Assembly (NCBI RefSeq): GCF_035285525.1
Contig: NZ_JAYKGW010000109.1
Coordinates: 27,173 to 59,172 of the forward strand
DNA: 32,000 bases
Reading direction: 5' to 3'
Origin: Okeania sp.
GTDB taxonomy: Bacteria > Cyanobacteriota > Cyanobacteriia > Cyanobacteriales > Microcoleaceae
A model generated the notes under the pieces. The model made no database searches, was not told where the DNA came from, and saw only the letters and a list, made by a program, of their open reading frames with translations. Position numbers and translations under genes: made by a program. Every line of letters begins with the position of its first letter. Position 1 is the first letter of the stretch. Shown here one piece after another: positions 12,111 to 32,000 of the stretch.

Positions 12111-12184
12111 TATAATAACTAAATTAGCTTTAGCAAACATTTATCAATTTAGTATAATCTCTGTAATTTTAGATAAAGATTGCT

Positions 12185-12325: not shown

Positions 12326-12339
12326 AATAACTTCTAATA

Positions 12340-12481: not shown

Positions 12482-12482
12482 T

Positions 12483-12636
12483 CTGTCCGCAGCGAGGGGG
12501 AAGGAAAAGAAATTGTTTTATGTGAAGCACCCCAAAACCCCCGAAGCAATCTTTTCTGTAATATGGGAGATTGCTTTGGCTAAGTTAATAGTTATTTCTA
12601 GAAGTTAACAGTTTCTATCACCGCCTCGCAATGACA
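12483..12636. mobile_element. MITE-like element, copy D (a further 5' fragment follows at 12645-~12668)
   Basis: Full-length relative of copy B, ending in CCTCGCAATGACA (12624-12636) and directly adjoining copy C. Confidence 0.7.
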
Positions 12637-12739
12637 ATAACTTGTGTCATGGAAAGGGGAAAAGGCTGACATTTGATGAGTGATAAATAGATTATTAAAA
12701 ACTGATAACTGATAACTAAATTTCAGATGGCTGAAACAG

Positions 12740-16085: not shown

Positions 16086-16157
16086 TTTAATAGGTTTAAT
16101 AATTAATAATTAAAAGAGGGAAGAGGAAATAGGTAATAGGAAATAGGGGATAGGGAA

Positions 16158-16184: not shown

Positions 16185-16348
16185 AATAATTGATGATTTA
16201 TAGATAATAATTGATTCTATTTTTGATTTTTAGAGATGTCTAATAATTAACAATAAAAAAAATGGGATTTGGAAACCAAACCCCTAAAATTTTTTTCACA
16301 AATCATTTCTTTGAGTTTATAGTATAAAAATTTTATGTTATGGATGTT

Positions 16349-16467
16349 CTTCAAAGTCCCCCTTACAAAGGGGGATTTAGGGGGATTGAAATCTACTTTT
16401 TTATATCTCCCCTTTGTCAGCGAGGGAGTCTTCAAAGTCCTCCTTACAAAGGGGGATTTAGGGGGAT
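16349..16467. repeat. Two copies of CTTCAAAGTCC(C/T)CCTTACAAAGGGGGATTTAGGGGGAT
   Basis: Copies at 16349-16386 and 16430-16467 differ by 1 nt. Each contains the hairpin CCCCTT-ACAA-AGGGGG. They create the spurious 'PLTKGDLGG' ORFs on both strands. Confidence 0.85.
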
Positions 16468-16716
16468 CAAACCCAAAACTGAGTCTTGAACCAAGATCTG
16501 TGTACACCGTAGCTTTCTCAGGCGGGTTGAATCACTGGATTACGTTCACCACAAAATTTAAGCAAATCTTCCACTTTGGCTCGAACCCTAGAAGCGATAA
16601 GCCTTAGACCGCGCCAGCGGGACAGGGTTTGGTAACAAATCATACAGTTGTCCCGTCACCCCTGCCCCCGGATTCGTGATATATCTGAGCATAGGAGCCA
16701 GCAGTAGAAGGTTTTT

Positions 16717-17469
16717 ATGCTATCCCTTGACGTTCCCCAGTATGCGTCCGCCCAAAAAATAAGTCAAACTTACCGAATTTTAGTGGTAGAAGATGAAGAA
16801 GTCATCCGCCAAATGCTGGTGCTCGCACTTCAGGAAGAAGGCTACGACGTCCTCTGGGCCGAGGATGGCCGCAGCGCCTTGGCGCTGATCCAAGATATTG
16901 AGGCCGCCTCCAATCAACCGCCTATCGATCTGATGTTGCTGGACCTGATGCTTCCCCAGGTCAACGGTCTGGATATCTGCCGCACCCTCCGTTATCAAGG
17001 CAACACCCTACCTATCCTCATCGTCAGCGCCAAGGCCAGCGAAACGGATCGGGTTTTGGGGCTAGAAGTCGGCGCCGACGATTACCTGAGCAAACCCTTT
17101 AGTATGCGGGAATTGGTTGCCCGTTGTCGGGCCCTGATTCGGCGCCAAAGTTTCGGCGCGGGTTCGACCAACACCTTCCGCAAGTTTCGGGATTTAGTGC
17201 TCTATCCCAAGGAATGCCGGGTCGTTCTCCGGGGGGAAGAGGTGAGTTTAGCGCCGAAGGAATACCGCCTACTGGAATTATTTATGGCCCATCCCCGCCG
17301 GGTTTGGTCCCGGGAACAACTAATCGAGCAAGTCTGGGGCATGGATTTTTTAGGCGACACCAAAACCGTGGATGTCCATATTCGTTGGTTACGGGAAAAA
17401 CTAGAACTAGACCCCAGTCAGCCCGAGTATATTATTACCGTTAGGGGTTTTGGCTACCGGTTTGGCTAG
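16717..17469 (+). CDS. OmpR/PhoB-family response regulator (SphR-like, assignment tentative)
   Basis: 250 aa. The receiver domain reads ILVVEDEE...DLMLLDLMLPQVNGLDIC...ILIVSAKASETDRVLGLEVGADDYLSKPF. The winged-helix C-terminus reads LAPKEYRLLELFM...VDVHIRWLREKLE...ITVRGFGYRF. Confidence 0.9.
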   Translation: MLSLDVPQYASAQKISQTYRILVVEDEEVIRQMLVLALQEEGYDVLWAEDGRSALALIQDIEAASNQPPIDLMLLDLMLPQVNGLDICRTLRYQGNTLPILIVSAKASETDRVLGLEVGADDYLSKPFSMRELVARCRALIRRQSFGAGSTNTFRKFRDLVLYPKECRVVLRGEEVSLAPKEYRLLELFMAHPRRVWSREQLIEQVWGMDFLGDTKTVDVHIRWLREKLELDPSQPEYIITVRGFGYRFG

Positions 17470-17538
17470 GCGGTTAATTTTCTCTTAACCTCGTCTATTC
17501 TAAATAGGTGTTGGCGCATCGACCGTGGGGGGTAAGCG

Positions 17539-18804
17539 ATGGATGTTTTGGCCCTAGTGTTGGGCGGACTTCTAGGTTTTGCCCTGGGATTGGGGGAGCG
17601 TTGGCGGCTCAAGCGCCGGTTAATGCCTTTTTTGACTTCCCTGGAAGATACCCCCCAGGTCGCTCGTTCTCTCTCGCTAATTTCCTTAGTACGCCGGGAA
17701 CTCGCTTATCTTAAAGACCGGGAATCCCGTCTGCTGGAGGAGCGAAGCCAGTCCCGCTTGATCTTAGAGCAGGCCCCCTGGGGCTATCTCCAGGTGGATG
17801 AAGACAACCATTTACTCTGGTGTAACCGTCAGGCCCAGAAATGGCTCCAGATTGACCGCTGGGAATCAAGGCAGTACCGGTTACTGTTAGAATGGGTGCG
17901 GTCTTCCGAGTTAGACCAATTGGTGGAGCGGACTCGCCAGACCCAAACCCCCCATATTCAGGAATGGCTTTTTTTTCCGCCCATCAACCCGGAGACCCTT
18001 AATCCAGGCAACCTCTCCTCCTGGTTACTGAAAGGGTATAGCTATCCTCTACCCCGGGGACAGGTGGCCATTTTTATCGAAAATCTCCAGCCCCTAGCGG
18101 AATTGCGCCGTAGTCGCGACCGAGTCTTCGCCGATCTGACCCACGAGTTACGCACGCCCCTGACGGCGATTTCCTTAGTCGCCGAGGCTCTCTTTCCCCG
18201 ACTTCAATCCCCAGAACAGGGCTGGGTGGGACAGATGCTGACAGAAACTGAGCGCTTACGCGCACTGGTAGACGAATGGCTCAGCCTTTCCCAGATTACG
18301 GAGAATCCGGGGCAGTGTCTGGATTTGGAAGATTTGGATCTGCGAGACGTTTTACTCTCCAGTTGGCAACGCCTGTTACCCTTAGCTCAGGAAAAACAGA
18401 TTCAACTGGATTACCAAGGCGCCGAGCAGTTATGGCTCCGGGGCGACCGGGATCGACTCATTCAAGTGTTTATCAATTTATTCGACAATTGTCTGAAACA
18501 TAGCCCAGAGAGGGGGGTAATTACCGTGTGGGCCGATTTAGGCGCTTCCCAGGCCCAGGTGCAAGTCTTGGATCAAGGCGCCGGCTTTAATCCCCAGGAT
18601 CTGCCCTTTATTTTTAACCGCCTCTACCGGGGCGATCCCTCCCGCCATCGGGGGCAGTCTCCCCGATCCGGTAGCGGTTTGGGGTTGGCTATCGCTAAAG
18701 AGATTATTGAAGCCCATCAGGGAAGCCTCGGCGCCGCCAACGATCCCCAAACCGGAGGGGCCTGTTTCACCGTCACCTTGCCGATTCTCTCAGAGGTTGT
18801 TTGA
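17539..18804 (+). CDS. Sensor histidine kinase, PhoR/SphS-like
   Basis: 421 aa with an N-terminal hydrophobic segment, a PAS-like region, the H-box FADLTHELRTPLTAI, an N-box FDNCLKHSP, FNRLYRGDPSR, and the G2 box GSGLGLAIAKEIIEAHQGSL. It starts 70 nt after the regulator stop. Confidence 0.88.
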   Translation: MDVLALVLGGLLGFALGLGERWRLKRRLMPFLTSLEDTPQVARSLSLISLVRRELAYLKDRESRLLEERSQSRLILEQAPWGYLQVDEDNHLLWCNRQAQKWLQIDRWESRQYRLLLEWVRSSELDQLVERTRQTQTPHIQEWLFFPPINPETLNPGNLSSWLLKGYSYPLPRGQVAIFIENLQPLAELRRSRDRVFADLTHELRTPLTAISLVAEALFPRLQSPEQGWVGQMLTETERLRALVDEWLSLSQITENPGQCLDLEDLDLRDVLLSSWQRLLPLAQEKQIQLDYQGAEQLWLRGDRDRLIQVFINLFDNCLKHSPERGVITVWADLGASQAQVQVLDQGAGFNPQDLPFIFNRLYRGDPSRHRGQSPRSGSGLGLAIAKEIIEAHQGSLGAANDPQTGGACFTVTLPILSEVV

Positions 18805-18967
18805 ATAAAGGGTCAACGCCCTGGTTTTATCCCCCCCTTGGACTGATCCCCTACCCAAAGAATCAGAAAAGCGCTTAACTGGACAAGAGCGTGATCTAAA
18901 TCACCCAAAGGTCGTTTGTGGTTTTGAGATTGCCGCCTTGGGTTAGTCACTTTTCTCGTTTCAAACC

Positions 18968-21900
18968 ATGTCTAACAACTACGGAGCATTTGCCGCTATT
19001 ACCGTTGATGCGGCCGGGACCGAACACGCCGTTTGGGAACAGAGCGGGGCCCTGTGGCATAGCTATTTTGATGAAACCGCTAACCAGTGGGTGGAAGGTC
19101 GTCCTGTGGCCACATCGGTTGGCGGGGGCAAACTGCAACTGATTACCGGCGATATTATTCCCTACCAAGTCACAGATACGGGAACGGGGCAAACCTTTAC
19201 CGAGTATGCGCCAGGGTTGGTGGCAATTTGGGCCGATAGCAACGGCGACCTGTTTTATGTCGTGGGGCGCTATGGGGAAGACCAAACGGTTCAGTGGTCA
19301 AATGCCGTCGAATTTGGCGCTCCTAATCTTAATAATCCCAATGACACCGTTTTTAGCCAAGATCCGGCGCTTGCGCTTACCCCAGCCACCATTACCCAAG
19401 AAGGTATAGCGACTCCGGCGGCGGTATCCGTGGTCTATTCCCAAGTCGATACCACGGTGGAATACATTGCCAACTGGCGGGGCAGTTTAGGCGATCAAAA
19501 TACCCTCATTAGCTTTCGTTTTACTGGTGTTGATAGCAATGGCGATGGCATTTTATCGGGGCGGGGCGCGAATAACAGTTTAGGGGATGGTATTAGCAAT
19601 GAATTGACAAGCTGGACAATGTTGGCGCTGTCGGCGGATGGCACGACGGTTTTAGCCAGTTATGACCTTAGCCAACAGTTAGCCCTCGACACCTTCAACT
19701 TTAATTTTGATCTAGCTAACCAACAAATTTTGGCCAATGCCGATGCAACCGTTTTTTCCCCCAGTGAAGATCTCTATGGCTTAAACACAGGGCTAGACCG
19801 TTCTGTTGATAGTGACGATGCCGTCTGGATACTCAAGAGTCAAAGCGCAAGCGAGGAGATTCAGTTACAAACCATTCCGGTCGGTTCAAACACCCCTACT
19901 ACCATTGCCATCAGTTCCCTAGCCAGCGCGATTTTTCCCGTTGCCAGCCAAACCAACGACGATACTGATCTTTACAGTGAATTCATTGCGTTTACGGGGG
20001 ATGCTCGCACTAGCGATACGCTCACCGATCAAAACGGCAATATGGTCACCTTTGCTGACCAAATACCGATTCCTGCCAGCTATGAACCTCTGGGGCCTGA
20101 GGCCCAGTTTTTGACTGCTGACACGATTAATTCCAAAAGTAATGAGGCTTTGTTGGGATTGGGCGCAACCTCTAGCAGTATTGCCACCACTCCCTTCGGC
20201 ACCACCCAAGGCTTTAATTTAACGTTTGCCGCCGCCAGTTGGATTTTAACGGGGCAAATTCCGCTACCCGCCTCCTTGATTCCGGCCGATAGCAATCAAA
20301 CGTATACCCTGACGGGGTCTATTGGCACGAGCAAGGAAGTCCAAGATGGACAAGTGGTTTACGTACTAGATACTAATGTTTCGATTGCCGAAGGGCCAAC
20401 CATTACATCTGGCTCCGATGAAAGCTCAGGTCGAGATCAATTTGTGGGAACCTCCCTGTCCCTTTCGTTAGACCTGAGCACCACATTTACCCCGGATGAG
20501 TCGGGGGATTTGCAATACTCAGACGCTTCCATAGGTTTGACGCTGGGATTTGGAACGTTTGATGCGATTCAACTGTCTGTTCCCCCTCTACCCGCAAAGC
20601 TAAAGGGAGGGATTTTGCAGGGGAGTGTCACCTTATCTAAACTGAATTTCACGGTTAATACTGGTGTTGACTTAGCAACCAAATCAACGACACCGCAACT
20701 GCCGATTTACCTGACGGGGAATGTCAACACTCCGGGTTCCATCCAGATGGTCAATCAAACCATCACGGCCTTTTTGAATGGAACAGAAGGTGAAGCGTTA
20801 GCGGGTTTGCCCCTGGCTCTATTGCAAACCATTGCTCTGCTGACCCTGGAAGAAAACGCCCAAGGGGAAGTGGAACCCGCTGAGGGAGGAATTTTAAATT
20901 ATCCTGTCGCGACGGTGGAAACCCTGATCGGCTTGCTCTATGGGTTGCAAATTGTGGAGCAGGTGGGCACGTTGTTGGGCGATTTGAAAAACTATACCTT
21001 TGAGGATCTGACTATTGGGCTGGATTATGCGCCGAACTTGAGCGGCAGTATCGGCGTGTTGTTCAATACCCTACAAGGCAACATGGGAGCGGGAGCTGAC
21101 ATTGGCATTGACTTGAATGTGGATAATACAGGGGCGGCCTCAGTCGATTTAGATTTTGCGGGTAATTTGTCGGCCAGCGCTTCATTTTTGCTCTGGAATT
21201 GGTCTTGGGGCTGGAATAAAGGGGTTAGCTATTCTTTTGATTTATCCACTAATTCATCAGCAACCTTAGCAACGGACAGCATAACTGACAGTACGGCCAG
21301 CGGCAATACAGGTGATGTCACTGTCATTTATGCCCCCACGACTGGCTCCAACATTCTTTACCAAACGACAGGGGCCGTCCGCTCCGACTTATCTGATCCC
21401 AGCGCCGGAACCCTCAATGATTTAACGGCAGATGATGATATTACCCTGGCGTTTGACCCCTATACCGGGTCAGTGTTATTGGCTTGGGTGGCGGCGGGCG
21501 GTGACAGTACCCTTCCCCTGGCCAGTCAAACCGGCGCGGTAGTTAGTCGGGTATATGCCTCGGCGTTGGATAGTTCTGGGCGGGGTTGGGATATTCCCAC
21601 CGTGGTGAATCAAACCAATGAGAGCCTTCATCCGGGGTTTAATTTCAACCCTAGTGGTGAATTTTTCTATACCAACACCAGTACCGGGGCGATCGCCAAT
21701 CCGGCCACCATTGAGGATTTTGCCGACTATACCCTTAACCGTATTTTGGTGTGGGGTTTTTCCGAAACAGCAGGGGATTTAAACGCCAACAGTACTCCTG
21801 ATGAAGTGCAAGCAGCGATCCAAGCGACCGATATTTATTACAGCCTCTCCAGTCGTCCCGCCAGTGGAGGTGTGTGGAGCGATTGGAGTGCGCCAGAAGT

Positions 21901-24900
21901 GGCGTTTGCGATGGCGGGAACCGATAGTTTACCCACGGTGGGACAAGATCCCGACGGCAATTTAAGGTTAGCTTGGGTCTCCGATAGCGCCATTAATGAT
22001 GAACCCCTCTCCACCATCTACACCAGTACCTGGGATGCCAGCAATGACCAATGGACAGAAGCGGCGATTGTCGCCCAGCAGAGCGATTTACGGGTTAGTA
22101 AGCTGATTCTGGATGCCTTTGGCTCTAATCCTGCCATTTACTGGACTGACGATATTGCGCCGAGTTACAGCGCCACGGTCTTAGATGACGATCCGGCTTG
22201 GTACTATCGCCTCAACGACAGTGGCAGTTCCGTCGCCCAAAATTTAGGTAATTTAGGCAGTACCTATAACGGCGCCTATGTAGGGGGAACGGTGGCCATT
22301 GTGGCCGATAGTGCGTTAGTGAACACCGAAACGGGTGATGGTGACCCCGATGCGTCGGCCCAATTTAGCGCCACAGCGGGGGGGTATCTTTCCATTCCCT
22401 TTAGTCAAAGCAGTTTAAACGGCAGTTACACCCTCGAACTCTGGGTCAAACTGGATAGCACGGCCAGCGGTCAAATTCTCTTACAAAAACTGCCCCTCGC
22501 CACCGACAGTAATTCAACCCCGACCCCCGAATGGATTCTACAAACTGGGGAAGGGGGAACGCTGGTGTTTGATGTGGGCAATGGCGAAATTACCAGTGAG
22601 GCGCTGACCACCGGAGAATGGTATTACGTGGTGGCGACGCTGGACAGCAGCATTAACGGTACTCAAGACAATCCGATCTCCGCCTTATATTTAAACGGCG
22701 CCTTAGTCGGGCAACAACAGGGCAGTGCCAACCCCAAAGCCGATGCGTCGGTGGTAGCCGGTCAAAATCTGGACGGACAGTTAGATGAAATCGCCATTTA
22801 CAACGCCCTCTTTACGCCAACGCCCGATCCCACAGTGGATGCGAGCGGCAACATCACGAATTATGATCCTGGCATTACTGGGGTCAATGCCATCAGCAAT
22901 CATTATGTCGCCCGCTATAATCTTCCCGCCAATGTGGTGAAAGATGGCACGTTTTATGCGGTTTACGACGGCAGTGAATGGAGTAGTAGTAATCTATTTG
23001 CGCCTCAGCCCCAAGATCCGGTGACTCAGCCCCTACTCTCCCGTCTGCCAACCTATGACGTTGTTTCCACTTCTGGCTTAGCCCCCGATGGGGTGACGGA
23101 TCTTTATACCCAAATTTCCCTCGTCAATCCCAATGCCACCCTCAACGCGATCCAAGTCACCAGCCCTGATGGCAACACTATTTGGAGTAGTAATTGGGCA
23201 ACGGATGGTCACCTTCCCCTCGCAATCATCCAAGGTGATGAACTGACTAATAATGCCAGTGGCGTTAGCCATACCCTCTTGGGCATTACAGAAACTTTTG
23301 ATCTTTATTTTCAAGGGACAGCCTCCACCTCGAACTACACCGTCAAGGTCGTTTTTAGTGATGGCGCCACAGCGACTCAATTCCAACCCTTATTACCGAA
23401 TCCCAGTCAATCGGGAACCGCCGGGGATGTCATTTCTGCCCAGGGGGACATTCTTGAAGATGAAGTGTCGAGTCTGGCTCAGATTGATAGTGGGCTGACG
23501 TTAGCTACCAGCGAAGATTATGTTGGTACTGCCATGGCCGCTGGCGCATTTCTTGATGGTCAAATGGCAATCGCCATTGCGGCCCCCTATGCCAAACCCA
23601 GCGCCAATGGCGCAACGGGGGACGGCGCCATTATCATCATTCCGGCTGGGAAAACGCTTAACAGTAATGCCGGATTAACCCTAGATCCAACCACCGTTCC
23701 CACTGGGGGTGTCCTGATTACTGGGGTAGAAGGTAGCCAAGAAAATGCCGGTTATACCTTGGGGGTAGGAGATATCAATGGCGATGGCAAAGCTGATTTA
23801 GTGATTGGCGCACCGCGAGGTAACAACCAGGCAGGCATTATTTATGTTGTCTTTGGCGAATACCTCACCGCCAACAGTAGCCTCAACCTGGCCACCCTCG
23901 TTAGTGAAGGCAAGGCCTTAGCCATTAGCGGCTTTAGTTCTGCCAGTGAAGCGGGAACTGCCTTAGCGGTGGGGAATTTAAACGGTGACGATTATGCGGA
24001 TATTTTGGTGGGCGCTCCCTATGGCTCCGCCGGGGCCGGAGAAGTCTATGCCATTTATGGTAGCGCCAGCAGTAGTTTAACGCCCCAATTAATTTTTACC
24101 GGCGAAGCGGGTAGTACCGCTGGATTTGCGGTGGACATTGTGCCGGTTAACAGCAGTCGCCATACCCTCAACGCCGATGTCCATGCCGACATTGTGATTG
24201 GCGCTCCTAATTACCAACAAACGGTCACCTTTAACAGCCGTTTTCAAAATGTCAACGCTCCCAAGGATGCCATTAATGCTTGGCTGGCCACCACGCCTAC
24301 CGTTCCCGATAACCAGAATATTACTGGCAGTAATGACCTGACCCTAACCACGGGTCGCGCCTACGTTTTGCTCGGACAGGGGGGCAATTTTGCCACCGGA
24401 CTCACCCAAAGCGCTCTGGGGGCCAATAACGGTTTTATCTTGGATGGCTCTTCCATTTTTAACAGTGATGGGGATGCAGGCTATAGCGTTTCTGGCGCTG
24501 GGGATCTTAACGGTGATACCTACGAAGATTTGGCGATCGGCGCTCCGGCGGAAAGCAAAGGGGCTGGGAGTGTTTATGTGGTCGCGGGGCGCTCCAGTTT
24601 TGCTGACTACATTGATCAAGATCCCTTGTCGTTAGCCTGGGACAGTAACCTAATTCTCACGGCTCCAGAAGCCAGCGCCCATTTGGGTCGTTTGGTGGCA
24701 GATGCAGGCGATTTTAATGGCGATGGTGCTAATGATTTACTGATTGGTTCCCCGAATGCGGGCTACAGCGCCGGTCAAGCCCATATCCTGTTTGGCAATA
24801 CCAGCAGTAGCAATAATCCCCTTTGGAGCAGCGCCACGGGCAACGCCTACAGCACCATTACCCCCCTGCAACCCGGCGCTACCCAAGGAACAGCTTTCTT

Positions 24901-27900
24901 TAACCAATTGGCTAGTGCCCCCGATCCGAGTTTTAATTACTTCACGTTGAATGGAACCAATCCCCAAGACTTAATGGTTCCGGCCACCGATGCGGTAGAT
25001 GTCAATGGTGATGGCGTAGAGGATTTACTCGCCAGCGCCCTCGTTGGCAATCAAGTGGGCATTTTATTTGGCCATCCTTGGCTGGCGGACGAAGGCAGCT
25101 TGAAAATTAAAGACCTGACATCCAATCAGGGATTGATTATTCCGGGCGCAATTGACAACCCCACCGCCGCTCCACAGGTGATTTTACTGGGGGATTTAAA
25201 CGGTGATGGCTATAGTGAAACCTTGGTCAACAATACCCCCACCGCTAGTACTCTTGTCTTTGGGGGCGGCACCCAAGCACTTCTCGATGACAGTCTGGTT
25301 ACTCGTGAATTGACCTTAACCCAAGCGGTTTCTACCCAGTACACCGCCGTGGGGGATGTCAATGGGGATGGTTTGCAAGATGTTGTGGCAGAAACGAGCA
25401 ATTCTGCCCTAAATTTGAATGGCATTAACAATTATGCTCAAATTCCCAATATCGAAGCGATTAACTTTGATACGAATGACAACTTTACTGTAGAAGCGTG
25501 GATTTGGATCGATACCCAACAGCCAGATACCCAAGAGGGGGACAATGACATCATTGAAAAATGGTCAGAGCAAGGGGGATATCCGTTTGTTATTCGCTAT
25601 CAGAGAAGCGCTGGAGAAATTCTTGTCGCTCGTTTTGATGGCACAAATAATCCTGCCATAAGCGCAAAAATTGGAACTAACCAGTTCTACCATGTCGCCT
25701 TTGTTAAAGACGGTAAAAATTTATACCTTTATTTGGATGGCGAACTTGCGGCTTCCGCAACTGATACCACCACCAACAGCACTCAAAATAACTCTCCTCT
25801 ATTTTTAGGCAGAAGGGGTGCGAGTGATCGCCCTAACTATTTTGCTGGGCAGATCGATAATCTCCGTATCTGGAATGTGGCCCGTACCCAAGCCGAAATT
25901 CAGGCCAATCTCAACCAAACCATTGACAAGCCTCTAACCCAAACCAATTTAGTCGGGGATTACACCTTTGATAATGGAACGGTAGATGACAGTAGCCAAA
26001 AAGGAAATAACGGCGCTCTGGAAGCGGGAGCAACGATTACAATGGTTTCAGCCATCACGAGTTTATTGTTGGGGAATGAGACGTTAGGAACCCAAGAAAC
26101 GTTAGATATTTCCACGTTACCGTCCTTCTCTCTATCCTCATTATCTGGGTCAATTACAAACATTGTGCCGGGATTAGATCCCAATGGCGATGGATTTAAC
26201 GACTGGTTGATACAGACAACGGAAGCACTTTACTGGGTTGTGGGTAATGCCGAGGGAACGATCGCCGATCCGGTGGCGTTAGATTTGAGTAATGCCCCCC
26301 TAACGTTCACAGAATTTTTAGGTATTACGGCGATCGCCGACACCAACAATGATGGTTACAGCGACTTGATTGGCATTAACGCTAGCAGCACCCCTGAACT
26401 AAGAATTCCCTATGTCATTTATGGTTCGGCTAATTTTGGTCAAACAGACACTGCTCTCACCTATGGGCAATTACCGACCGTTAATTTATCTTTATCACCC
26501 CAATTGGATGTCTTAGACATTGGCGATGTTAATGGGGATGGCAAGGGCGATTTTGTGGTGATTGGCTCAGGGATTGAGGACAATCTTTTTTATCTTGCCA
26601 TTAGTGGCAGTGGAGAAACAAATTACACTTACGCCTCGCTAGAAGGTGAAAACATTGCTGACACCAATCCTTTGCAGTTAATCGGCAATGGAGATATTAA
26701 TGGGGATGGCTTTGATGATGTCATTGTCGGACAACCCAGTGCATCCAAAGTCTATGTCGTTTTTGGCAGTCCTAACTGGAAAAATGTAGGACAGACTGAT
26801 TTTATTTTCCTTCCCAGCCTCACCACATCAGCCACAACAACCGTTACTGCTGATGGTTTACCCCTATTCGGACTAACCATCGAAGGGCTGGCCAACTCCC
26901 AAGCTGGCTTAACCCTCGGTGGCGGTGAGGATGTGAATGGCGATGGGTTTGCCGATTTTGCCATTGGCGCACCGGGTGTGGATAACCTTAGCTATGTGCT
27001 GTTTGGCGGTGATTTCCTCGCAACATTGAGCCAAGGGGGAACGATCGCCAACGATGTTTTGGAGGGAACAGCAACGGGAGATAAAATTATCGGGAGCAAT
27101 GGCGCAGATTTTTTGGACGGCCGAGGAGGGTTTGATGTCCTTGTGGGTGGCTCCGGTAATGATGTCCTTGCCATTGGCGATACCGATTTTCGACGAGTTG
27201 ATGGGGGCAGTGGGCGCGACACTCTTAAGCTGGCAGGAGCGCTCAATCAAGTCTGGGATTTAACCGAGCTAAGCAGTGGTTTGCGACTCCAAAATCTAGA
27301 AGTTATTGACATGACCGGCTATGGCGAAAATACGTTAACCCTCAATGCCTTAACGGTTCTGAATTTATCTACCACCAGTAACAGCCTCTTTGTGGATGCA
27401 GATTCTGGCGCAAATGGTTTTACCGACACTCTATTCTTAGCGAGTGACTTTACCAACCAAGGAACCGTATCTGGTAATGGCGTTACCTACGATAAATATA
27501 CGTCGGCAGAAGCGTCTATTTATGTCACACCCGGAGTTCGGGTTATCTCTCTGGACACACTAACAGTTGTCACCACCAACGATGATATTGGTTCCGTCGA
27601 GGTCGCCATTACAAGCTTGACTGCGCCAGAAGAAAATTCCGTCGCCGTCTTCGACGCAACCCCCCGCATTTTTGTCTCTGAAGGGGTGGTTTCTGAAAGC
27701 GAATCAGAGGCTAAGTTCACAGTTACCCGAACTGGTGACATTAGTGAAGGCTTAACCCTAAATTACACGACTCTCGATGGTACTGCTGATGCGGGCACCC
27801 ATTTTATCCCTCGCTCCGGCAAACTGATTTTTGGGCCGGGGGTCGAAACCCTCTCTGTGGATATTCCCCTGATTGATGACATTATTCTACGGCAGTCCAA

Positions 27901-28429
27901 TCGCAACTTTGACTTACGAATCCTGGAATCCTTTAGCCAGGGAGGCGACTTTAGCCAACCGATCGCCGCTGGAGAGGGGGACGATGTGGTTCAGGTGAGC
28001 GCTCAAGATTCTTATATTTTGGGAGAAGGCGGGAATGATCGCCTTTTCGGCGGTTCCAGTAACGACCAATTGCTAGGCGGGAGTGGCGATGATTTTCTCA
28101 GCGGAAATCGAGGCAGTGATCAACTAACCGGCGGGCTTGGCAACGACACCTTTGTGTTCACGGCTTTACACGACGCGGGCGACCTCATTTTTGACTTTGA
28201 AGTCGGCGTTGATTTAATCGATCTCAGTCAACTACTCGACACGCTCAATTATGGAGGCAGTGACCCGATCGCCGATGGTTATGTCCAGTTTGGTGCCGCT
28301 GGGGAAACCCATTCCCAACTGTTTATCGATCCTGACGGGAGTTTGGGAGCAGCCAGTCGTCGGGCCTTTGCATTTCTATTCGATGTGGATGTTGGGGGCC
28401 TGAGTGATGCCACTAATTTTTGCTTTTAG
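18968..28429 (+). CDS. Giant (3,153 aa) secreted multidomain protein: unassigned N-terminal ~1,075 aa, 2 LamG, ~13 FG-GAP/integrin-alpha loops, Calx-beta, RTX repeats, T1SS C-terminal target domain
   Basis: A single uninterrupted ORF with no N-terminal signal peptide (MSNNYGAFAAITVD...). Domain motifs are listed in the sub-features below. All overlapping ORFs in other frames are short and look like GC-driven artefacts. Confidence 0.92.
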   Translation: MSNNYGAFAAITVDAAGTEHAVWEQSGALWHSYFDETANQWVEGRPVATSVGGGKLQLITGDIIPYQVTDTGTGQTFTEYAPGLVAIWADSNGDLFYVVGRYGEDQTVQWSNAVEFGAPNLNNPNDTVFSQDPALALTPATITQEGIATPAAVSVVYSQVDTTVEYIANWRGSLGDQNTLISFRFTGVDSNGDGILSGRGANNSLGDGISNELTSWTMLALSADGTTVLASYDLSQQLALDTFNFNFDLANQQILANADATVFSPSEDLYGLNTGLDRSVDSDDAVWILKSQSASEEIQLQTIPVGSNTPTTIAISSLASAIFPVASQTNDDTDLYSEFIAFTGDARTSDTLTDQNGNMVTFADQIPIPASYEPLGPEAQFLTADTINSKSNEALLGLGATSSSIATTPFGTTQGFNLTFAAASWILTGQIPLPASLIPADSNQTYTLTGSIGTSKEVQDGQVVYVLDTNVSIAEGPTITSGSDESSGRDQFVGTSLSLSLDLSTTFTPDESGDLQYSDASIGLTLGFGTFDAIQLSVPPLPAKLKGGILQGSVTLSKLNFTVNTGVDLATKSTTPQLPIYLTGNVNTPGSIQMVNQTITAFLNGTEGEALAGLPLALLQTIALLTLEENAQGEVEPAEGGILNYPVATVETLIGLLYGLQIVEQVGTLLGDLKNYTFEDLTIGLDYAPNLSGSIGVLFNTLQGNMGAGADIGIDLNVDNTGAASVDLDFAGNLSASASFLLWNWSWGWNKGVSYSFDLSTNSSATLATDSITDSTASGNTGDVTVIYAPTTGSNILYQTTGAVRSDLSDPSAGTLNDLTADDDITLAFDPYTGSVLLAWVAAGGDSTLPLASQTGAVVSRVYASALDSSGRGWDIPTVVNQTNESLHPGFNFNPSGEFFYTNTSTGAIANPATIEDFADYTLNRILVWGFSETAGDLNANSTPDEVQAAIQATDIYYSLSSRPASGGVWSDWSAPEVAFAMAGTDSLPTVGQDPDGNLRLAWVSDSAINDEPLSTIYTSTWDASNDQWTEAAIVAQQSDLRVSKLILDAFGSNPAIYWTDDIAPSYSATVLDDDPAWYYRLNDSGSSVAQNLGNLGSTYNGAYVGGTVAIVADSALVNTETGDGDPDASAQFSATAGGYLSIPFSQSSLNGSYTLELWVKLDSTASGQILLQKLPLATDSNSTPTPEWILQTGEGGTLVFDVGNGEITSEALTTGEWYYVVATLDSSINGTQDNPISALYLNGALVGQQQGSANPKADASVVAGQNLDGQLDEIAIYNALFTPTPDPTVDASGNITNYDPGITGVNAISNHYVARYNLPANVVKDGTFYAVYDGSEWSSSNLFAPQPQDPVTQPLLSRLPTYDVVSTSGLAPDGVTDLYTQISLVNPNATLNAIQVTSPDGNTIWSSNWATDGHLPLAIIQGDELTNNASGVSHTLLGITETFDLYFQGTASTSNYTVKVVFSDGATATQFQPLLPNPSQSGTAGDVISAQGDILEDEVSSLAQIDSGLTLATSEDYVGTAMAAGAFLDGQMAIAIAAPYAKPSANGATGDGAIIIIPAGKTLNSNAGLTLDPTTVPTGGVLITGVEGSQENAGYTLGVGDINGDGKADLVIGAPRGNNQAGIIYVVFGEYLTANSSLNLATLVSEGKALAISGFSSASEAGTALAVGNLNGDDYADILVGAPYGSAGAGEVYAIYGSASSSLTPQLIFTGEAGSTAGFAVDIVPVNSSRHTLNADVHADIVIGAPNYQQTVTFNSRFQNVNAPKDAINAWLATTPTVPDNQNITGSNDLTLTTGRAYVLLGQGGNFATGLTQSALGANNGFILDGSSIFNSDGDAGYSVSGAGDLNGDTYEDLAIGAPAESKGAGSVYVVAGRSSFADYIDQDPLSLAWDSNLILTAPEASAHLGRLVADAGDFNGDGANDLLIGSPNAGYSAGQAHILFGNTSSSNNPLWSSATGNAYSTITPLQPGATQGTAFFNQLASAPDPSFNYFTLNGTNPQDLMVPATDAVDVNGDGVEDLLASALVGNQVGILFGHPWLADEGSLKIKDLTSNQGLIIPGAIDNPTAAPQVILLGDLNGDGYSETLVNNTPTASTLVFGGGTQALLDDSLVTRELTLTQAVSTQYTAVGDVNGDGLQDVVAETSNSALNLNGINNYAQIPNIEAINFDTNDNFTVEAWIWIDTQQPDTQEGDNDIIEKWSEQGGYPFVIRYQRSAGEILVARFDGTNNPAISAKIGTNQFYHVAFVKDGKNLYLYLDGELAASATDTTTNSTQNNSPLFLGRRGASDRPNYFAGQIDNLRIWNVARTQAEIQANLNQTIDKPLTQTNLVGDYTFDNGTVDDSSQKGNNGALEAGATITMVSAITSLLLGNETLGTQETLDISTLPSFSLSSLSGSITNIVPGLDPNGDGFNDWLIQTTEALYWVVGNAEGTIADPVALDLSNAPLTFTEFLGITAIADTNNDGYSDLIGINASSTPELRIPYVIYGSANFGQTDTALTYGQLPTVNLSLSPQLDVLDIGDVNGDGKGDFVVIGSGIEDNLFYLAISGSGETNYTYASLEGENIADTNPLQLIGNGDINGDGFDDVIVGQPSASKVYVVFGSPNWKNVGQTDFIFLPSLTTSATTTVTADGLPLFGLTIEGLANSQAGLTLGGGEDVNGDGFADFAIGAPGVDNLSYVLFGGDFLATLSQGGTIANDVLEGTATGDKIIGSNGADFLDGRGGFDVLVGGSGNDVLAIGDTDFRRVDGGSGRDTLKLAGALNQVWDLTELSSGLRLQNLEVIDMTGYGENTLTLNALTVLNLSTTSNSLFVDADSGANGFTDTLFLASDFTNQGTVSGNGVTYDKYTSAEASIYVTPGVRVISLDTLTVVTTNDDIGSVEVAITSLTAPEENSVAVFDATPRIFVSEGVVSESESEAKFTVTRTGDISEGLTLNYTTLDGTADAGTHFIPRSGKLIFGPGVETLSVDIPLIDDIILRQSNRNFDLRILESFSQGGDFSQPIAAGEGDDVVQVSAQDSYILGEGGNDRLFGGSSNDQLLGGSGDDFLSGNRGSDQLTGGLGNDTFVFTALHDAGDLIFDFEVGVDLIDLSQLLDTLNYGGSDPIADGYVQFGAAGETHSQLFIDPDGSLGAASRRAFAFLFDVDVGGLSDATNFCF
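22196..22813 (+). other. Giant protein domain: LamG / concanavalin-A-like lectin (Laminin_G_3-type) #1
   Basis: AWYYRLNDSGSSVAQNLGN...SYTLELWVKLDSTASGQILLQK...GEWYYVVATLD...LYLNGALVGQQ...LDGQLDEIAIYNALF. Confidence 0.7.
23500..25400 (+). other. Giant protein domain: FG-GAP/integrin-alpha-like beta-propeller block 1 (8 calcium-loop motifs)
   Basis: GDINGDGKADLVIGAP, GNLNGDDYADILVGAP, NADVHADIVIGAP, GDLNGDTYEDLAIGAP, GDFNGDGANDLLIGSP, VDVNGDGVEDLLAS, GDLNGDGYSETLV, GDVNGDGLQDVVAE. Confidence 0.85.
25401..25915 (+). other. Giant protein domain: LamG / concanavalin-A-like lectin #2, inserted between the FG-GAP blocks
   Basis: LNLNGINNYAQIPN...FTVEAWIWID...FYHVAFVKDGKNLYLYLDGELAAS...FAGQIDNLRIWNVARTQAEIQANL. 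Confidence 0.75.
26170..26980 (+). other. Giant protein domain: FG-GAP block 2 (5 calcium-loop motifs)
   Basis: LDPNGDGFNDWLIQ, ADTNNDGYSDLIGI, GDVNGDGKGDFVVIG, GDINGDGFDDVIVGQP, EDVNGDGFADFAIGAP. Confidence 0.8.
27050..27235 (+). other. Giant protein domain: RTX (hemolysin-type calcium-binding) nonapeptide repeats #1
   Basis: LEGTATGDKIIGSNGADFLDGRGGFDVLVGGSGNDVLAIGD...DGGSGRDTL. Confidence 0.8.
27640..27925 (+). other. Giant protein domain: Calx-beta
   Basis: FVSEGVVSESESEAKFTVTRTGDISEGLTLNYTTLDGTADAGTHFIPRSGKLIFGPGVETLSVDIPLIDDIILRQSNRNFDLRI. Confidence 0.8.
27970..28165 (+). other. Giant protein domain: RTX nonapeptide repeats #2
   Basis: GEGGNDRLFGGSSNDQLLGGSGDDFLSGNRGSDQLTGGLGNDTFVF. 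Confidence 0.85.
28166..28426 (+). other. Giant protein domain: type I secretion C-terminal target domain (VC_A0849-subclass-like)
   Basis: GDLIFDFEVGVDLIDLSQLLDTLNYGGSDPIADGYVQFGAAGETHSQLFIDPDG...FAFLFDV, at the extreme C-terminus directly after the RTX repeats. Confidence 0.65.
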
Positions 28430-28505
28430 GGACTGAATCCCCCCTATGTCTCCCTTGCCACCTTTCTCAACCTTGTCCATCTTTTATCAATCCTGCTCAT
28501 TGATT

Positions 28506-29090
28506 ATGAACATGAAATTCTTAACCTTTACCACTAGCGCCATTTTCTCGGCGATCGGGCTGACTCTCACCGCCTTTCCAGCCCAGGCGGCGATTATTCA
28601 TTATGAATTTTCTGTCTTGATCGAGAGTGGCTCCCTCGTTGGGCAAACCTTTGATGGCACTTTTCGTTATGACGATGCCGACGTGGCAGGATCACCCCAG
28701 GCGACGGCGACGGTAACGGGTTTTGATTTCGATTTTAATGGCGCTAACTATTGTTACGGTAATCTTTGTAACGGCAGTATTGGGGAAACCATAATGACTG
28801 CGCCCGTCGCCTATTTTGCCGTTTTCGACCCCAGCGCCTTTGTGGGACTCAACGGCAGTTACATTAATGGCGATTTTTCGTTTGACTTTAACAATGCCTT
28901 TGTCAGTCCCGATGATTCTAGTTTTGACTATAGTCTTTCCGCCTTACCCAACGACTCAGGCGTTGGCAAACCCTCTTATTCCGCTGTTCCTGAACCTTTT
29001 ACACTGTTAGGCGCTGTCTCAGCCCTTTTTTGGGGGGCGACGTTTAAGCGTAAAGTCGGACACAAGGGAAGTGGTCAAAAATTGTCTTAG
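28506..29090 (+). CDS. PEP-CTERM sorting-domain protein with unknown secreted N-terminal domain
   Basis: Signal peptide MNMKFLTFTTSAIFSAIGLTLTAFPAQA. The C-terminus is VPEPFTLLGAVSALFWGATFKRK, i.e. PEP motif, TM helix and basic tail. The ORF track starts at 28446, but ATG 28506 gives a proper signal peptide. Confidence 0.8.
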   Translation: MNMKFLTFTTSAIFSAIGLTLTAFPAQAAIIHYEFSVLIESGSLVGQTFDGTFRYDDADVAGSPQATATVTGFDFDFNGANYCYGNLCNGSIGETIMTAPVAYFAVFDPSAFVGLNGSYINGDFSFDFNNAFVSPDDSSFDYSLSALPNDSGVGKPSYSAVPEPFTLLGAVSALFWGATFKRKVGHKGSGQKLS

Positions 29091-29201
29091 GAGATTAGTG
29101 CAAAATCAATCATAAGCTTTACGATTTTATCCTAAGCTTCCTTAGATTCTTCGTCTAACAGTTATTTTATTTTCAGTTGTTTACCAACACTTTTGTTTAT
29201 C

Positions 29202-30899
29202 ATGCTCAACAAAATTCTGTCCCTGCAATATTTATCTAGCCTGATGACCAAGAAAGCACTGATTTCTCCTATTTGTCAGTTGATGGTCATACCGACCACC
29301 CTATTACTAGGGGCACTGCCCGCAGTGGCTGGCTCAATTGGGTTGCCCCTTCCTACCATTACTGAATTAGCCAAAGATGCTTGGATTTACGGTTTTGCCC
29401 CAGTGACCGTTGCCGAAAAGGAGTTTAATCAAACGATTCCGACTGCTGATGCCGTTTATGCTCCGATCAATAAATTATTCATCGATACGGCTACCCCACT
29501 CCCCGATAATCAACTTTGGGTATCTCCGAATGTCAATGTTGTCTATGCTTCCTCCCATATTGACTTAACGAATCAACCCCTTATTCTCTTTAACCCAGAC
29601 CGGAGTACAACCCCCTTTGCTGATCAATACTTTGTTTGGCAATTTATGGATGCTTACACCAATGACTATGACTATGTTGGAAGTCGTACCACTGGGCAGG
29701 GGGAAGGGACTTATGCCATTGTTGGGCCAAATTTCAACGGAACGATTCCTTTTCCTATCACGAAAACCATCACATCACCCACCAATTCTGGTTGGATTGT
29801 CGGACGATTTGAAGTGACGCCTAACTCTACCTCAGATCGCAATGAGGTTGTAAACTTGATTCAAAAAAACGTTTTTCTAACGCTTAATGAATATCAATCA
29901 TTTATTATTGACGGAAATGACCCAGATTATAAAAATCCAATCATTACAAAACCTGGCATCGAGTTTCCAGAATTAAATGTTGAAGGTCTAGAGTTTTTCA
30001 ATGTTCTGAATCGTTGGTTAGTCAAAAATCCTCCCCCGGCTCTAGACAATCCAATTTTAGGGCAAATTGCTCAAATTGGTATTAGCCCGGTCGAAAGTGA
30101 ACAAATCGAATTTGATGATCAATTTATTATCAATAATCTCGATGAAGCGGCCGCTCTGCTCTTGGGAATTAAAGAGGCAGAAGAAATCGCCGCTATCAAA
30201 ACCATTGAGCCAGACCAAGCCTATTGTGTTGGCAGTGATGTTTCTTTTGATAACTGTTCTGAGGATCAGAAATTATTAATTAATGATGTCCACAATGGTT
30301 GGTTTTATTCTTTGGGAACTCCTTTTGGTAACTTTGAGGATGAGTATCTACCCCGAACCTTATTAGCTCGTGGTGGCTTAGGAGGAAATGTAGTTGAGGA
30401 AGCAGTTTATCCCGTTCGTTTTTTCGATGAAAACGATCAACTCTTATCTCCAACTAAGCAATATACGTTTACGTTTGAAGCGGGGTTTGATCCAGTGAAT
30501 GATCCTGGTTTCTGGTCAATCACAATGTACGACTTAGAAACTGGCGAAATCGTTGCCAATCCCTTGGATCGTTATACTATCGGTAGTCAAAATGACTTAA
30601 TTCCTAATCAGGATGGGTCGATTACGATTTATATTCAGCGGGATAATCCCGGTGGCGATCAAACTAACAACTGGTTGCCCACAGCAGTATCAGGGAATGA
30701 TCCTTTCTATCTTCTATTTCGTGCCTACAACCCCAAGGAAGGATTTTATACGCCTGTTTCTCTCATCCAAGACACGGAAATTCCTTTGCCGAATATCCAG
30801 ACAGAACCAGTTCCCGAACCTTTAACTCTTCTGGGAACTACCACAGCAATTATTTTTGGGGCATCATTTAAGCAACGTCTAAATAGAAAGAATAAGTAG
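29202..30899 (+). CDS. DUF1254/DUF1214-domain protein carrying a PEP-CTERM sorting tail
   Basis: Signal-like N-terminus. AKDAWIYGFAPV is DUF1254-like and DPGFWSITMYD is DUF1214-like. The C-terminus is PVPEPLTLLGTTTAIIFGASFKQRLNRKNK. I prefer ATG 29202 over TTG 29193. Confidence 0.7.
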   Translation: MLNKILSLQYLSSLMTKKALISPICQLMVIPTTLLLGALPAVAGSIGLPLPTITELAKDAWIYGFAPVTVAEKEFNQTIPTADAVYAPINKLFIDTATPLPDNQLWVSPNVNVVYASSHIDLTNQPLILFNPDRSTTPFADQYFVWQFMDAYTNDYDYVGSRTTGQGEGTYAIVGPNFNGTIPFPITKTITSPTNSGWIVGRFEVTPNSTSDRNEVVNLIQKNVFLTLNEYQSFIIDGNDPDYKNPIITKPGIEFPELNVEGLEFFNVLNRWLVKNPPPALDNPILGQIAQIGISPVESEQIEFDDQFIINNLDEAAALLLGIKEAEEIAAIKTIEPDQAYCVGSDVSFDNCSEDQKLLINDVHNGWFYSLGTPFGNFEDEYLPRTLLARGGLGGNVVEEAVYPVRFFDENDQLLSPTKQYTFTFEAGFDPVNDPGFWSITMYDLETGEIVANPLDRYTIGSQNDLIPNQDGSITIYIQRDNPGGDQTNNWLPTAVSGNDPFYLLFRAYNPKEGFYTPVSLIQDTEIPLPNIQTEPVPEPLTLLGTTTAIIFGASFKQRLNRKNK

Positions 30900-30932
30900 C
30901 CTGACGGCAACGCTTTACTCAATGACCGAGAT

Positions 30933-31215
30933 ATGAAAACCGATCCCCAAAATCATTCCTCAACGTTAGAGCAACCCCTCAGAATCGTAAATACTGATAG
31001 TTTTGCGGCAATTCTGACCCAGTTGGGGATTTCTCTCGTTGTTTCCACCTATCAAGCTGGCAAATTGATTGTTATGGGGGCTGAGAATGAGATGAGCGTT
31101 AACACCCATTTTCGTCGTCTAAAAAAATCCCCCCGAAGGTAAACATGAAGCCTGTTTCTTGCTTCGAAATATGCACATCACAGGAGATATTGACATTCAT
31201 GAAACGGTCGCCCCA
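30933..31215 (+). pseudogene. Remnant of a TIGR03032-like conserved hypothetical gene
   Basis: The first 65 codons (...FAAILTQLGISLVVSTYQAGKLIVMG...VNTHFRR) resemble the family N-terminus as I recall it. The frame then stops at 31140-31142. A second fragment in another frame (ACFLLRNMHITGDIDIHETVAPNT*) follows, and the rest of the ~330-aa protein is absent. Confidence 0.35.
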
Positions 31216-31277
31216 AATACGTGACAGCCTAGATCCCCAAAGTAATGAATTGGTTTGTGTAGCCCAAGTGCTGGGTT

Positions 31278-31895
31278 TTACGAGGGGTCTAGATTTCTAT
31301 GACCATAAGGATCTCCCAAGTATTTCCGCAGGTAGGGAGAAAAAACTTCATAAATTAAGGTCAGAGGTTTACCGGCGTGCCAGAACAAATAATGGCGCCC
31401 CCAAAAGGGGCCAGTTTCTTGAAAGGCAGTTTCTAAAGCGGGCTGGTTTCCATAGTACAGACCCTGCACATCCCGATAGAGTTCGCTGTGGAGGCGGGAC
31501 AAACTTTCCCAAATGGGCAAACTGCGATTTTCTAAATACTCGTCCACATGGCTGGCGTCCCACCAAGAGACGGCGTAGGCTAATCGCTGGCCCGAAGCGG
31601 TTCTTAACCAGACCTGGCGCCGGAGCCAGGGACGGGGCACAGCTTCGATTTGGCCCGGCGCCGCCGGATCGGCTTTTTCAACTAAGGACATGTCTAACAC
31701 ATCCACCTCGGTTTTTTCCCCCGTCAGTAGTTGCAAGTGGCGGGTGGGAGAGCCGTCTCCGAGGATTAGCATCTGCCAAGCCGGAGCGAGTTGCCGGTGG
31801 GGCAAACCAGTTTTCACCGTCTGTTGGTCTCCTTGCCACAGCAATTCTAGGCTATGCCAGGAAGAAGCCAGCACCGTTGGGGAAGAGTGTATCAA
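31278..31895 (-). CDS. Chorismate lyase (chorismate pyruvate-lyase, cyanobacterial UbiC-like / DUF564)
   Basis: 205 aa. MLILGDGSPTRHLQLLTGEKTEVDVL...RRQVWLRTASGQRLAYAVSWW fits the cyanobacterial chorismate lyase pattern. The overlapping + strand ORF 31145-31900 is its antisense shadow. Confidence 0.6.
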   Translation of the reverse strand: MIHSSPTVLASSWHSLELLWQGDQQTVKTGLPHRQLAPAWQMLILGDGSPTRHLQLLTGEKTEVDVLDMSLVEKADPAAPGQIEAVPRPWLRRQVWLRTASGQRLAYAVSWWDASHVDEYLENRSLPIWESLSRLHSELYRDVQGLYYGNQPALETAFQETGPFWGRHYLFWHAGKPLTLIYEVFSPYLRKYLGDPYGHRNLDPS

Positions 31896-31946
31896 AGTGA
31901 AGTTACAAAAATTTACGTCTTTTTTAAGATAGCAAACCCAAGACGG

Positions 31947-32000
31947 TTAGCGATCCGGCAGGAGGCCGCAGACCTGCAACCGTTGCGCCAGCGCCGGAAA
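31947..32000 (-). CDS. 3' end of an unidentified gene running off the window
   Basis: The minus strand reads ...FPALAQRLQVCGLLPDR* with its stop at 31947-31949. Only 17 codons are visible. Confidence 0.25.
   Translation of the reverse strand, partial: FPALAQRLQVCGLLPDR

Follow-up and report, generated by a model that had tools for sequence, protein, structure and literature searches.

Homologues of integrin-alpha and integrin-beta4 (Calx-beta) domains in cyanobacteria were noted by May & Ponting in 1999, according to a passage in PMC3192720 that cites them, and repeats-in-toxin (RTX) proteins, which are substrates of type I secretion systems (T1SS), are most abundant in cyanobacteria (PMC3034196). 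Here we analyze a giant gene at positions 18968..28429 of a 32,000-nucleotide stretch of contig NZ_JAYKGW010000109.1 (assembly GCF_035285525.1, labeled Okeania sp.), hereafter called the window. The encoded protein of 3,153 amino acids (aa) is a member of the long-noted and uncharacterised group of cyanobacterial integrin-alpha/Calx-beta giants (PMC3192720, PMC3034196), and its domain content makes it rather likely, in our view, that it is a T1SS-exported, Ca2+-dependent surface or matrix adhesin.

Public representatives of this group, such as K9Z4K8 and AIE73895.1, are like the window protein in size (3,100–4,200 aa) and in scaffold, which comprises an N-terminal head, LamG, FG-GAP propellers, an RTX-associated module and Calx-beta. 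They are annotated 'Na-Ca exchanger/integrin-beta4' or 'Calx-beta domain-containing protein', are only 28–30% identical to the window protein, and carry SwmB repeats, BNR-repeat inserts and DUF4114 or DUF5648 ends, whereas the window protein has a second LamG domain and a TIGR03661 end. This comparison tells relatedness, not function.

A second group of described systems is the canonical RTX adhesins (LapA, MpIBP, FrhA and the Aeromonas RTX adhesins), which like the window protein are giant and acidic and end in an RTX beta-roll and a T1SS signal. In RTX adhesins the domains that bind ligands extend from "split" host domains (PMC12077191; bioRxiv 10.1101/2025.09.30.679566), and the LamG domain among the propeller blades of the window protein, together with its probably split N-terminal propeller, would follow the same logic. 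Of the three minimum features of an RTX adhesin, we found the beta-roll with its T1SS signal and failed to find the other two. An N-terminal retention module (∼127–196 aa) gave no NCBIfam match in the whole protein or in aa 1–165, although sequence models can miss such modules, and the head models as propeller blades rather than as a retention module. Likewise, no Big/Ig-type Pfam match indicated tandem Ig-like extenders, the giant gene contains no DNA tandem repeats, and the window holds no LapG/LapD-type genes.

A complete gene for a calcium-binding giant protein

The open reading frame (ORF) starts with ATG and comprises 3,153 codons and a stop, as originally predicted. Its product (328 kDa) is identical to NCBI MEB3341143.1/WP_324236569.1, has a pI of ∼4.05 with 366 Asp and Glu against 88 Lys and Arg residues, and contains a sole Cys at the penultimate position (aa 3152). 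The N-terminus (MSNNYGAFAAITVDAAGTEHAVW) showed on inspection no hydrophobic stretch resembling the h-region of a signal peptide and is conserved from Met1 in homologues; because of this conservation, both the start codon and the absence of a signal peptide, which the original prediction had also claimed, are credible. The acidic pI, single Cys and lack of a Sec-signal-like N-terminus are a composition typical of T1SS substrates. The protein is collinear with homologues of 3,100–4,200 aa from the head through Calx-beta, and its C-terminal T1SS region aligns, among those homologues, only with P0003 and P0010. We conclude that the ORF is genuine and complete and encodes a Ca2+-binding giant protein. 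Its parts are as follows (all on the + strand).

18968..28429, +, the giant gene, 3,153 aa, identical to MEB3341143.1/WP_324236569.1
18968..19315, +, N-terminal head, aa 1–116, with the highest conservation in the family, about two propeller blades in the model
19448..19852, +, mobile orphan domain of ∼120–135 aa, aa 161–295, 'NGDGILSGRG...NELTxW...FNFNFD', AlphaFold2 predicted local distance difference test (pLDDT) ∼80, no Pfam match
20165..21277, +, orphan mid-domain, aa 400–770, modelled as about 12 long amphipathic beta strands and a helical hairpin, ending in WNWSWGW
21440..22180, +, aa 825–1071, modelled as about four blades of a sialidase-like beta-propeller (AlphaFold2, Foldseek)
22184..22819, +, LamG (Laminin_G_3) domain 1, aa ∼1073–1284 (Pfam)
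22820..23467, +, second Pfam-free stretch, aa 1285–∼1500, conserved in the family, between LamG 1 and the propellers
23480..25402, +, FG-GAP block 1, aa ∼1505–2145, nine FG-GAP-like units, one of them degenerate
25421..25903, +, LamG (Laminin_G_3) domain 2, aa 2152–2312 (Pfam)
26135..27052, +, FG-GAP block 2, aa ∼2390–2695, five units with Ca loops
27077..27229, +, RTX block 1, aa 2704–2754, three nonapeptides (Pfam, motif scan)
27230..27667, +, post-RTX module, aa 2755–2900, conserved, without a Pfam match
27683..27925, +, Calx-beta domain, aa 2906–2986 (Pfam, PDB search)
28046..28156, +, RTX block 2, aa 3027–3063, serralysin/CyaA-like beta-roll, three nonapeptides
28181..28429, +, C-terminal T1SS target region, TIGR03661 at aa 3072–3130, through the stop (NCBIfam)

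Whole-protein and segment-wise scans recovered all four domain families named in the original prediction above their curated cut-offs: FG-GAP (195 bits against a cut-off of 22, E 6e-59), two copies of Laminin_G_3 (144 bits, E 5e-42), Calx-beta (aa 2906–2986, 55.6 bits, E 7e-15) and HemolysinCabind (49.6 bits against 23, E 4e-13). A sequence search of the PDB matched the blades of the integrin alpha-V propeller (2.5e-12), the RTX beta-rolls of CyaA and serralysin (4.5e-26) and the Calx-beta domain of a Na/Ca exchanger (1.9e-10). The domain order that had been read from the sequence (LamG, eight FG-GAP loops, LamG, five FG-GAP loops, RTX, Calx-beta, RTX, T1SS signal) agrees with Pfam, the motif scan and TIGR03661, and with it the description of a giant protein of T1SS type that combines Ca2+-binding (FG-GAP, Calx-beta, RTX) and lectin-fold (LamG) modules. 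That map held for the order and the 8+5 count and was incomplete in three places: it missed the Pfam-free stretch of aa 1285–∼1500, a degenerate FG-GAP-like unit and the module of aa 2755–2900. The first of these is probably a beta-sandwich; a phmmer search with aa 1285–1600 returned chance-level matches only.

The motif scan placed FG-GAP Ca-loop units before LamG 2 at aa 1601, 1669, ∼1740 (degenerate), 1845, 1914, 2011, 2075 and 2129, and Ca loops after it at aa 2404, 2457, 2519, 2575 and 2655, with ∼11 good DxDxDGxxD-type loops in all. Adding the degenerate unit at aa ∼1505–1560 brings the count, made by eye and by regular expression, to 14, or 2×7, which suggests two seven-bladed propellers. 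Integrin alpha subunits share the FG-GAP blades with DxDxDGxxD Ca loops, and the similarity to integrin alpha-V is significant; in contrast to integrin alpha, the window protein has no beta subunit, transmembrane segment or thigh/calf domains, and its insert is a LamG jelly-roll rather than vWFA. The alpha-I domain of integrins sits between blades 2 and 3 of the propeller. If the 14 units do form two seven-bladed propellers, LamG 2 would lie at this same site in the second of them.

The C-terminal part has several features of T1SS substrates. Six GGxGxDxUx nonapeptides lie in two blocks (aa 2709–2754 and 3037–3063), and a scan limited to the last 153 residues matched TIGR03661 (T1SS_VCA0849) to aa 3072–3130 (26.1 bits, cut-off 17.6), a match that is absent from the whole-protein scan list. 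A nearby exporter gene, which is common but not obligatory for T1SS substrates, was not found. Between the RTX blocks, the post-RTX module is common to many unrelated RTX/FG-GAP giants and is often multicopy (P0007, P0013, P0014, P0017, P0018 and others). The giant protein carries no PEP-CTERM motif with transmembrane helix and basic tail.

Segment-wise BLAST found the same scaffold in ∼15 cyanobacterial proteins of 3,100–4,200 aa, which share the head, LamG 1, aa 1301–1480, the propellers, the post-RTX module and Calx-beta. The closest relatives (44–53% identical) come from marine metagenome-assembled genomes (MAGs), from the unicellular cyanobacterium SU2 and, as a fragment, from Crocosphaera sp. 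Alani8, and the distant members (28–30%) from Synechocystis (AIE73895.1), Geminocystis NIES-3709 and Cyanobacterium aponinum PCC 10605 (K9Z4K8). At the LamG 2 site, P0002 carries the mobile domain seen at aa 161–295 here and P0003 and P0004 carry two or three LamG domains; other members have BNR-repeat inserts near this site. The C-termini are of TIGR03661 type, other RTX types, DUF4114 or DUF5648. Thus, the giant protein belongs, as its alignments indicate, to a rare cyanobacterial family with a fixed scaffold in which cassettes are swapped at a few sites. The original prediction of an "undescribed type" with an "unusual order" was overstated, given ∼15 public proteins with the same scaffold, and the position of the second LamG domain is one of several sites with differing cassettes across the family. 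Two parts could be new, namely the orphan first third and, as described below, the cassette with its PEP-CTERM partners. No family member carries a functional name, and the literature searched yielded no paper combining FG-GAP, Calx-beta, RTX and cyanobacteria and none characterising slr1403-type proteins. We also observed a paralogue (P0019, locus L011 20671–26186) in the metagenomic genome that encodes P0002; it is apparently cut by ISL3 and IS66 transposase insertions, and a separate 764-aa Calx-beta and RTX ORF downstream of it resembles its former C-terminus.

Proposed function and the orphan first third

The most economical reading of these features is an adhesin or matrix role, in which carbohydrate binding and adhesion are predicted from the domain types. 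A T1SS encoded elsewhere would export the protein unfolded, C-terminus first, and the RTX beta-rolls, Calx-beta and the ∼11 FG-GAP Ca loops would fold only upon meeting extracellular Ca2+. The two LamG domains, the two putative integrin-type propellers and the sialidase-like propeller could then bind glycans or proteins, whether of the envelope, of the exopolysaccharide matrix or of adjacent cells, so that the protein would act as a surface or matrix adhesin. Export, Ca2+-dependent folding, the type of ligand, the surface location and adhesion are all steps that we infer. The PEP-CTERM neighbours, which are presumably sorted by an exosortase, would point to the exopolysaccharide and exosortase sphere.

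Several observations weigh against an adhesin role. LamG and FG-GAP folds are no proof of lectin or adhesin activity, and the RTX blocks are short, with three nonapeptides each. No exporter gene was seen in the window, in agreement with the original prediction that it holds no ATP-binding cassette (ABC) transporter, membrane fusion protein (MFP) or TolC gene, or in the 10-kb flanks that were read for six homologues. Neither a retention module nor Ig-like extenders were detected. The C-termini of the family are diverse, and not all members need be T1SS substrates. Our literature search found no study of any family member and no characterised homologue. Finally, the model of aa 1–1075 is poor (mean pLDDT 55), and that of the mid-domain reached pLDDT 71 without a fold match.

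The first third, a leading region of ∼1,075 aa said to lack recognised motifs, indeed gave no Pfam, NCBIfam or PDB sequence match over aa 1–1072, either in the giant protein or in nine aligned relatives. A PDB profile search with the N-terminal alignment returned 0 matches, and HMMER, run exhaustively against 1.84 billion cluster representatives, returned 43 matches at E ≤ 1e-3, mostly fragments. The AlphaFold2 model of aa 1–1075, built from 10 sequences, was confident in aa 165–320 and 890–1060. Foldseek matched this model with probability 1.0 to six-bladed sialidases of glycoside hydrolase family 33 (GH33) and to a GH32 endo-levanase over 257–320 aligned columns; the target TM-scores of the sialidase matches were 0.26–0.40, in a model whose pLDDT is ∼80 only in aa 890–1060 and ∼50–60 in the head. 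The strand pattern gives about two blades in aa 10–111 and about four in aa 825–1071. The head and aa 825–1071 therefore probably form, as modelled, a split six-bladed sialidase-like propeller with a ∼700-aa insert that holds two orphan domains. The first of these, the mobile domain of aa 161–295, recurs two to five times in other giants (P0094, P0095, P0098, P0101, P0002, P0003 and P0019).

The second orphan domain, the mid-domain, reached a predicted template modelling score (pTM) of 0.65 when modelled alone from 16 sequences, with about 12 strands of 8–25 residues. Six of the twelve have one face that is 55–89% hydrophobic and another that is 0–12% hydrophobic and almost entirely polar or small. 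Of all 19-residue stretches in the protein, the most hydrophobic (aa 610–628, Kyte-Doolittle (KD) score 1.67) and the third-ranked (aa 653–671, KD 1.37) lie in the helical hairpin (aa 597–669). Similarity of the mid-domain is detectable by sequence only with the closer relatives; between the close and distant subfamilies hhalign gave a probability of only 56%, and local iterated searches failed to bridge the groups.

One explanation for this pattern is that the mid-domain is a membrane-insertion module, which would anchor the protein in the outer membrane of the producer or form pores in target cells in the manner of the hydrophobic domain of RTX cytolysins. A hydrophobic hairpin beside strictly amphipathic strands would suit such a module, a hydrophobic Gly/Ala-rich segment occurs at the mid-domain position in every family member, and the best fold matches were outer-membrane barrels such as FhuA, Pla and CymA, and beta-pore-forming toxins. 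However, these matches are weak and insignificant (E ≥ 3.7e-3, query TM-score ≤ 0.28): no significant fold match was found in the PDB or in the viral structures of BFVD, and a test for an outer-membrane beta-barrel gave no significant closed-barrel match and no signal peptide. The same amphipathic pattern is also compatible with a soluble beta-sheet around a hydrophobic helical core. Moreover, the window contains no HlyC-type acyltransferase gene and no gene hinting at a target or immunity function, and the domain showed no similarity to the hydrophobic domains of RTX cytolysins. We consider membrane insertion unlikely.

A surface role in motility or an S-layer instead of adhesion is also conceivable, because cyanobacterial RTX proteins of known role are mostly tied to one or the other (PMC3034196). 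SwmA and SwmB of Synechococcus WH8102, a marine strain, oscillin of Phormidium and Sll1951 of Synechocystis are RTX-type surface proteins exported without a signal peptide (PMC3034196), and the SWM_repeat (PF13753) is present in distant relatives of the giant protein (P0008–P0012 and P0015), one relative being named "SwmB domain-containing". The giant protein itself, however, has no Pfam match to SWM_repeat and no detectable homology to these proteins outside the common RTX repeats, and its gene lies in a strain-variable cassette rather than in a motility cluster. We therefore judge a role like that of SwmA/SwmB, oscillin or Sll1951 to be quite unlikely.

The Foldseek matches to GH33 and GH32 enzymes raise the further possibility of a secreted enzyme that degrades or modifies glycans, with the sialidase-like propeller as its catalytic part and the LamG domains and FG-GAP propellers as carbohydrate-binding modules. 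Some relatives have BNR_2 matches elsewhere in their sequences, but the first 1,075 aa of 10 family members gave no Pfam/NCBIfam glycoside-hydrolase or BNR match, and the PDB profile search found nothing. The Arg triad and Tyr/Glu pair of GH33/BNR sialidases were not found in the N-terminal third: R101 is the sole invariant Arg of the family alignment, which makes a conserved triad unlikely. Because only one Arg is invariant, the propeller is probably not catalytic, and an enzymatic role appears very unlikely. We retain the Ca2+-dependent adhesin as the most likely reading of the giant protein.

The accessory cassette and its host

The giant gene lies between a two-component regulatory pair and a chorismate lyase gene, and is directly followed by a gene for a small PEP-CTERM protein.

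16717-17469, +, PhoB/SphR-like response regulator, conserved left flank of the cassette
17539-18804, +, PhoR/SphS-like histidine kinase, conserved left flank of the cassette
18787..31305, no strand, accessory cassette of 12.5 kb, absent from contig L009
28446..29090, +, small PEP-CTERM (cyano_PEP) protein, directly after the giant gene
29193..30899, +, DUF1254 and DUF1214 protein with a PEP-CTERM tail
31278..31895, −, cyanobacterial chorismate lyase, convergent, conserved right flank of the cassette

Comparison with L009, a Logan contig of 53.5% GC from an independent sample, revealed an insertion. L009 aligns at 85–90% nucleotide identity over window positions 16586–17492, 17539–18786 and 31306–32000, and its kinase is 92% identical to the window kinase. 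It lacks window positions 18787–31305, and the kinase and chorismate lyase genes abut at this point (L009 3200–3204). Besides the giant gene, the segment inserted relative to L009 carries two PEP-CTERM genes and an ORF fragment of 69 aa (30933–31142). Because both flanks align and the intervening segment is missing from L009, we conclude that the giant gene and the two PEP-CTERM genes are a 12.5-kb strain-variable accessory cassette. The cassette borders showed only an 11-nt match at chance level and no mobility genes, and scans found no tRNA or Rfam family. The loci of distant relatives have no neighbours in common with the window locus, and several lie beside transposases or an integrase. 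L009 further carries a CHRD-domain gene (1198–1818) between the response regulator and kinase genes, where the window has only a 69-bp gap (17470–17538); the aligned blocks leave 46 bp of this gap uncovered.

Adjacency to the PhoB/PhoR-like pair made Pho control of the giant gene a candidate, which found no support: no Pho-box-like triple repeat was found upstream at ≤3 mismatches, and a weak terminator-like hairpin follows the kinase gene. Since the kinase gene abuts the chorismate lyase gene in L009, its adjacency to the giant gene is a by-product of the insertion.

The two PEP-CTERM ORFs match TIGR04155 with 37.7 and 36.1 bits against a cut-off of 21.6. A homologue of the small protein follows the giant gene in L003 as well (12165–12659, 33% identity, E 6e-19). 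The annotated ATG at 28446 is probably too early and the true start an internal Met near 28506, because the homologue aligns from there and a signal-peptide-like segment starts there. The idea that the small protein is a free-standing copy of the mobile domain was rejected (BLASTP E 0.29; absent from the matches of an iterated profile search). A DUF1254/DUF1214 protein also neighbours the giant gene of the closest homologue, P0002, which it precedes (L005 6619–9102); the sorting tags of the two neighbours differ, being PEP-CTERM in the window and an RTX block in L005. GC content at third codon positions (GC3) is 0.37 in the 29193–30899 region, below that of its neighbours, and the literature searched held no paper covering DUF1254 together with DUF1214.

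The window has a sharp compositional break. Positions 1–∼16500 have 33% GC, a GC3 of 0.17–0.32 and 12 HIP1 sites, compared with ∼52% GC, a GC3 of 0.5–0.6 and 2 HIP1 sites in positions 16586–32000, and ordinary cyanobacterial genes lie on both sides. A published Okeania genome has 36.8% GC (PMC7660993), and the left half fits the Okeania label, whereas the right half resembles L009 and relatives of Chroococcales type. The nearest named relatives of the kinase are from unicellular Chroococcales, namely Synechocystis sp. LKSZ1 (61%) and Snowella, Crocosphaera and Rippkaea (∼53–55%), and no other Okeania protein is among its top 120 matches. The break is most likely due to a chimeric MAG contig, with a large transfer as the alternative; L009 ends at window position 16586, short of the join. 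From the GC contrast, the L009 match and the relatives of the kinase, we infer that the host of the giant gene is probably a unicellular cyanobacterium of ∼53% GC and not Okeania, so that the public Okeania label probably does not apply to this gene. The earlier suggestion to look for the protein in a sheath fraction presumes a filamentous host, and the gene's half of the window is not Okeania-like.

Although the break and several split or truncated genes in the low-GC half could indicate that the giant ORF is itself mis-assembled, chimeric or a pseudogene in a poor-quality MAG contig, such an artefact is scarcely credible, since the break (∼16500–16586) is intergenic and precedes the gene by 2.4 kb, GC3 stays even over the whole length of the gene (0.43–0.55), the protein aligns from Met1 to Calx-beta with independent homologues and in its C-terminal region with P0003 and P0010, and L009 independently confirms both cassette flanks.

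Within the low-GC half, damaged-looking genes, either pseudogenes or sequence errors, lie at 1207–1665, 1914–3629 and 12740–14185. A stop codon at 2511–2513 interrupts a Schlafen AlbA_2/HATPase_c_4 gene, a Ser/Thr kinase-GUN4 gene is split into two ORFs, and only the C-terminal half of a pyridoxal phosphate (PLP)-dependent enzyme is encoded. Immediately on the AT-rich side of the junction, at 16113–16154 and 16348–16467, lie three copies of a 14-nt unit and a pair of 39-nt direct repeats that share 97% identity and are 81 nt apart. We found no ORF truncated at the GC junction.

Taken with the cassette, the first third allows a broader and doubtful reading. With its orphan domain, in which long amphipathic strands surround a hydrophobic helical hairpin, the split sialidase-like propeller might be a new anchoring or membrane- or lipid-interacting module of T1SS megaproteins that replaces the LapA-type retention module, and the three-gene cassette might couple a T1SS substrate to exosortase-sorted PEP-CTERM partners as one surface or matrix module.

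Some of the largest cyanobacterial genes encode giant RTX, FG-GAP and Calx-beta proteins, and almost none of these proteins, noted since 1999, has a known function. A cassette that varies between strains is in keeping with a role in interactions of cells with one another, with the matrix or with grazers or phages. If the first third is a retention or membrane-interaction device, it would represent a second way to anchor T1SS megaproteins, and the family, with its fixed scaffold and swappable ligand-binding cassettes, is a natural system for studying the evolution of surface specificity.

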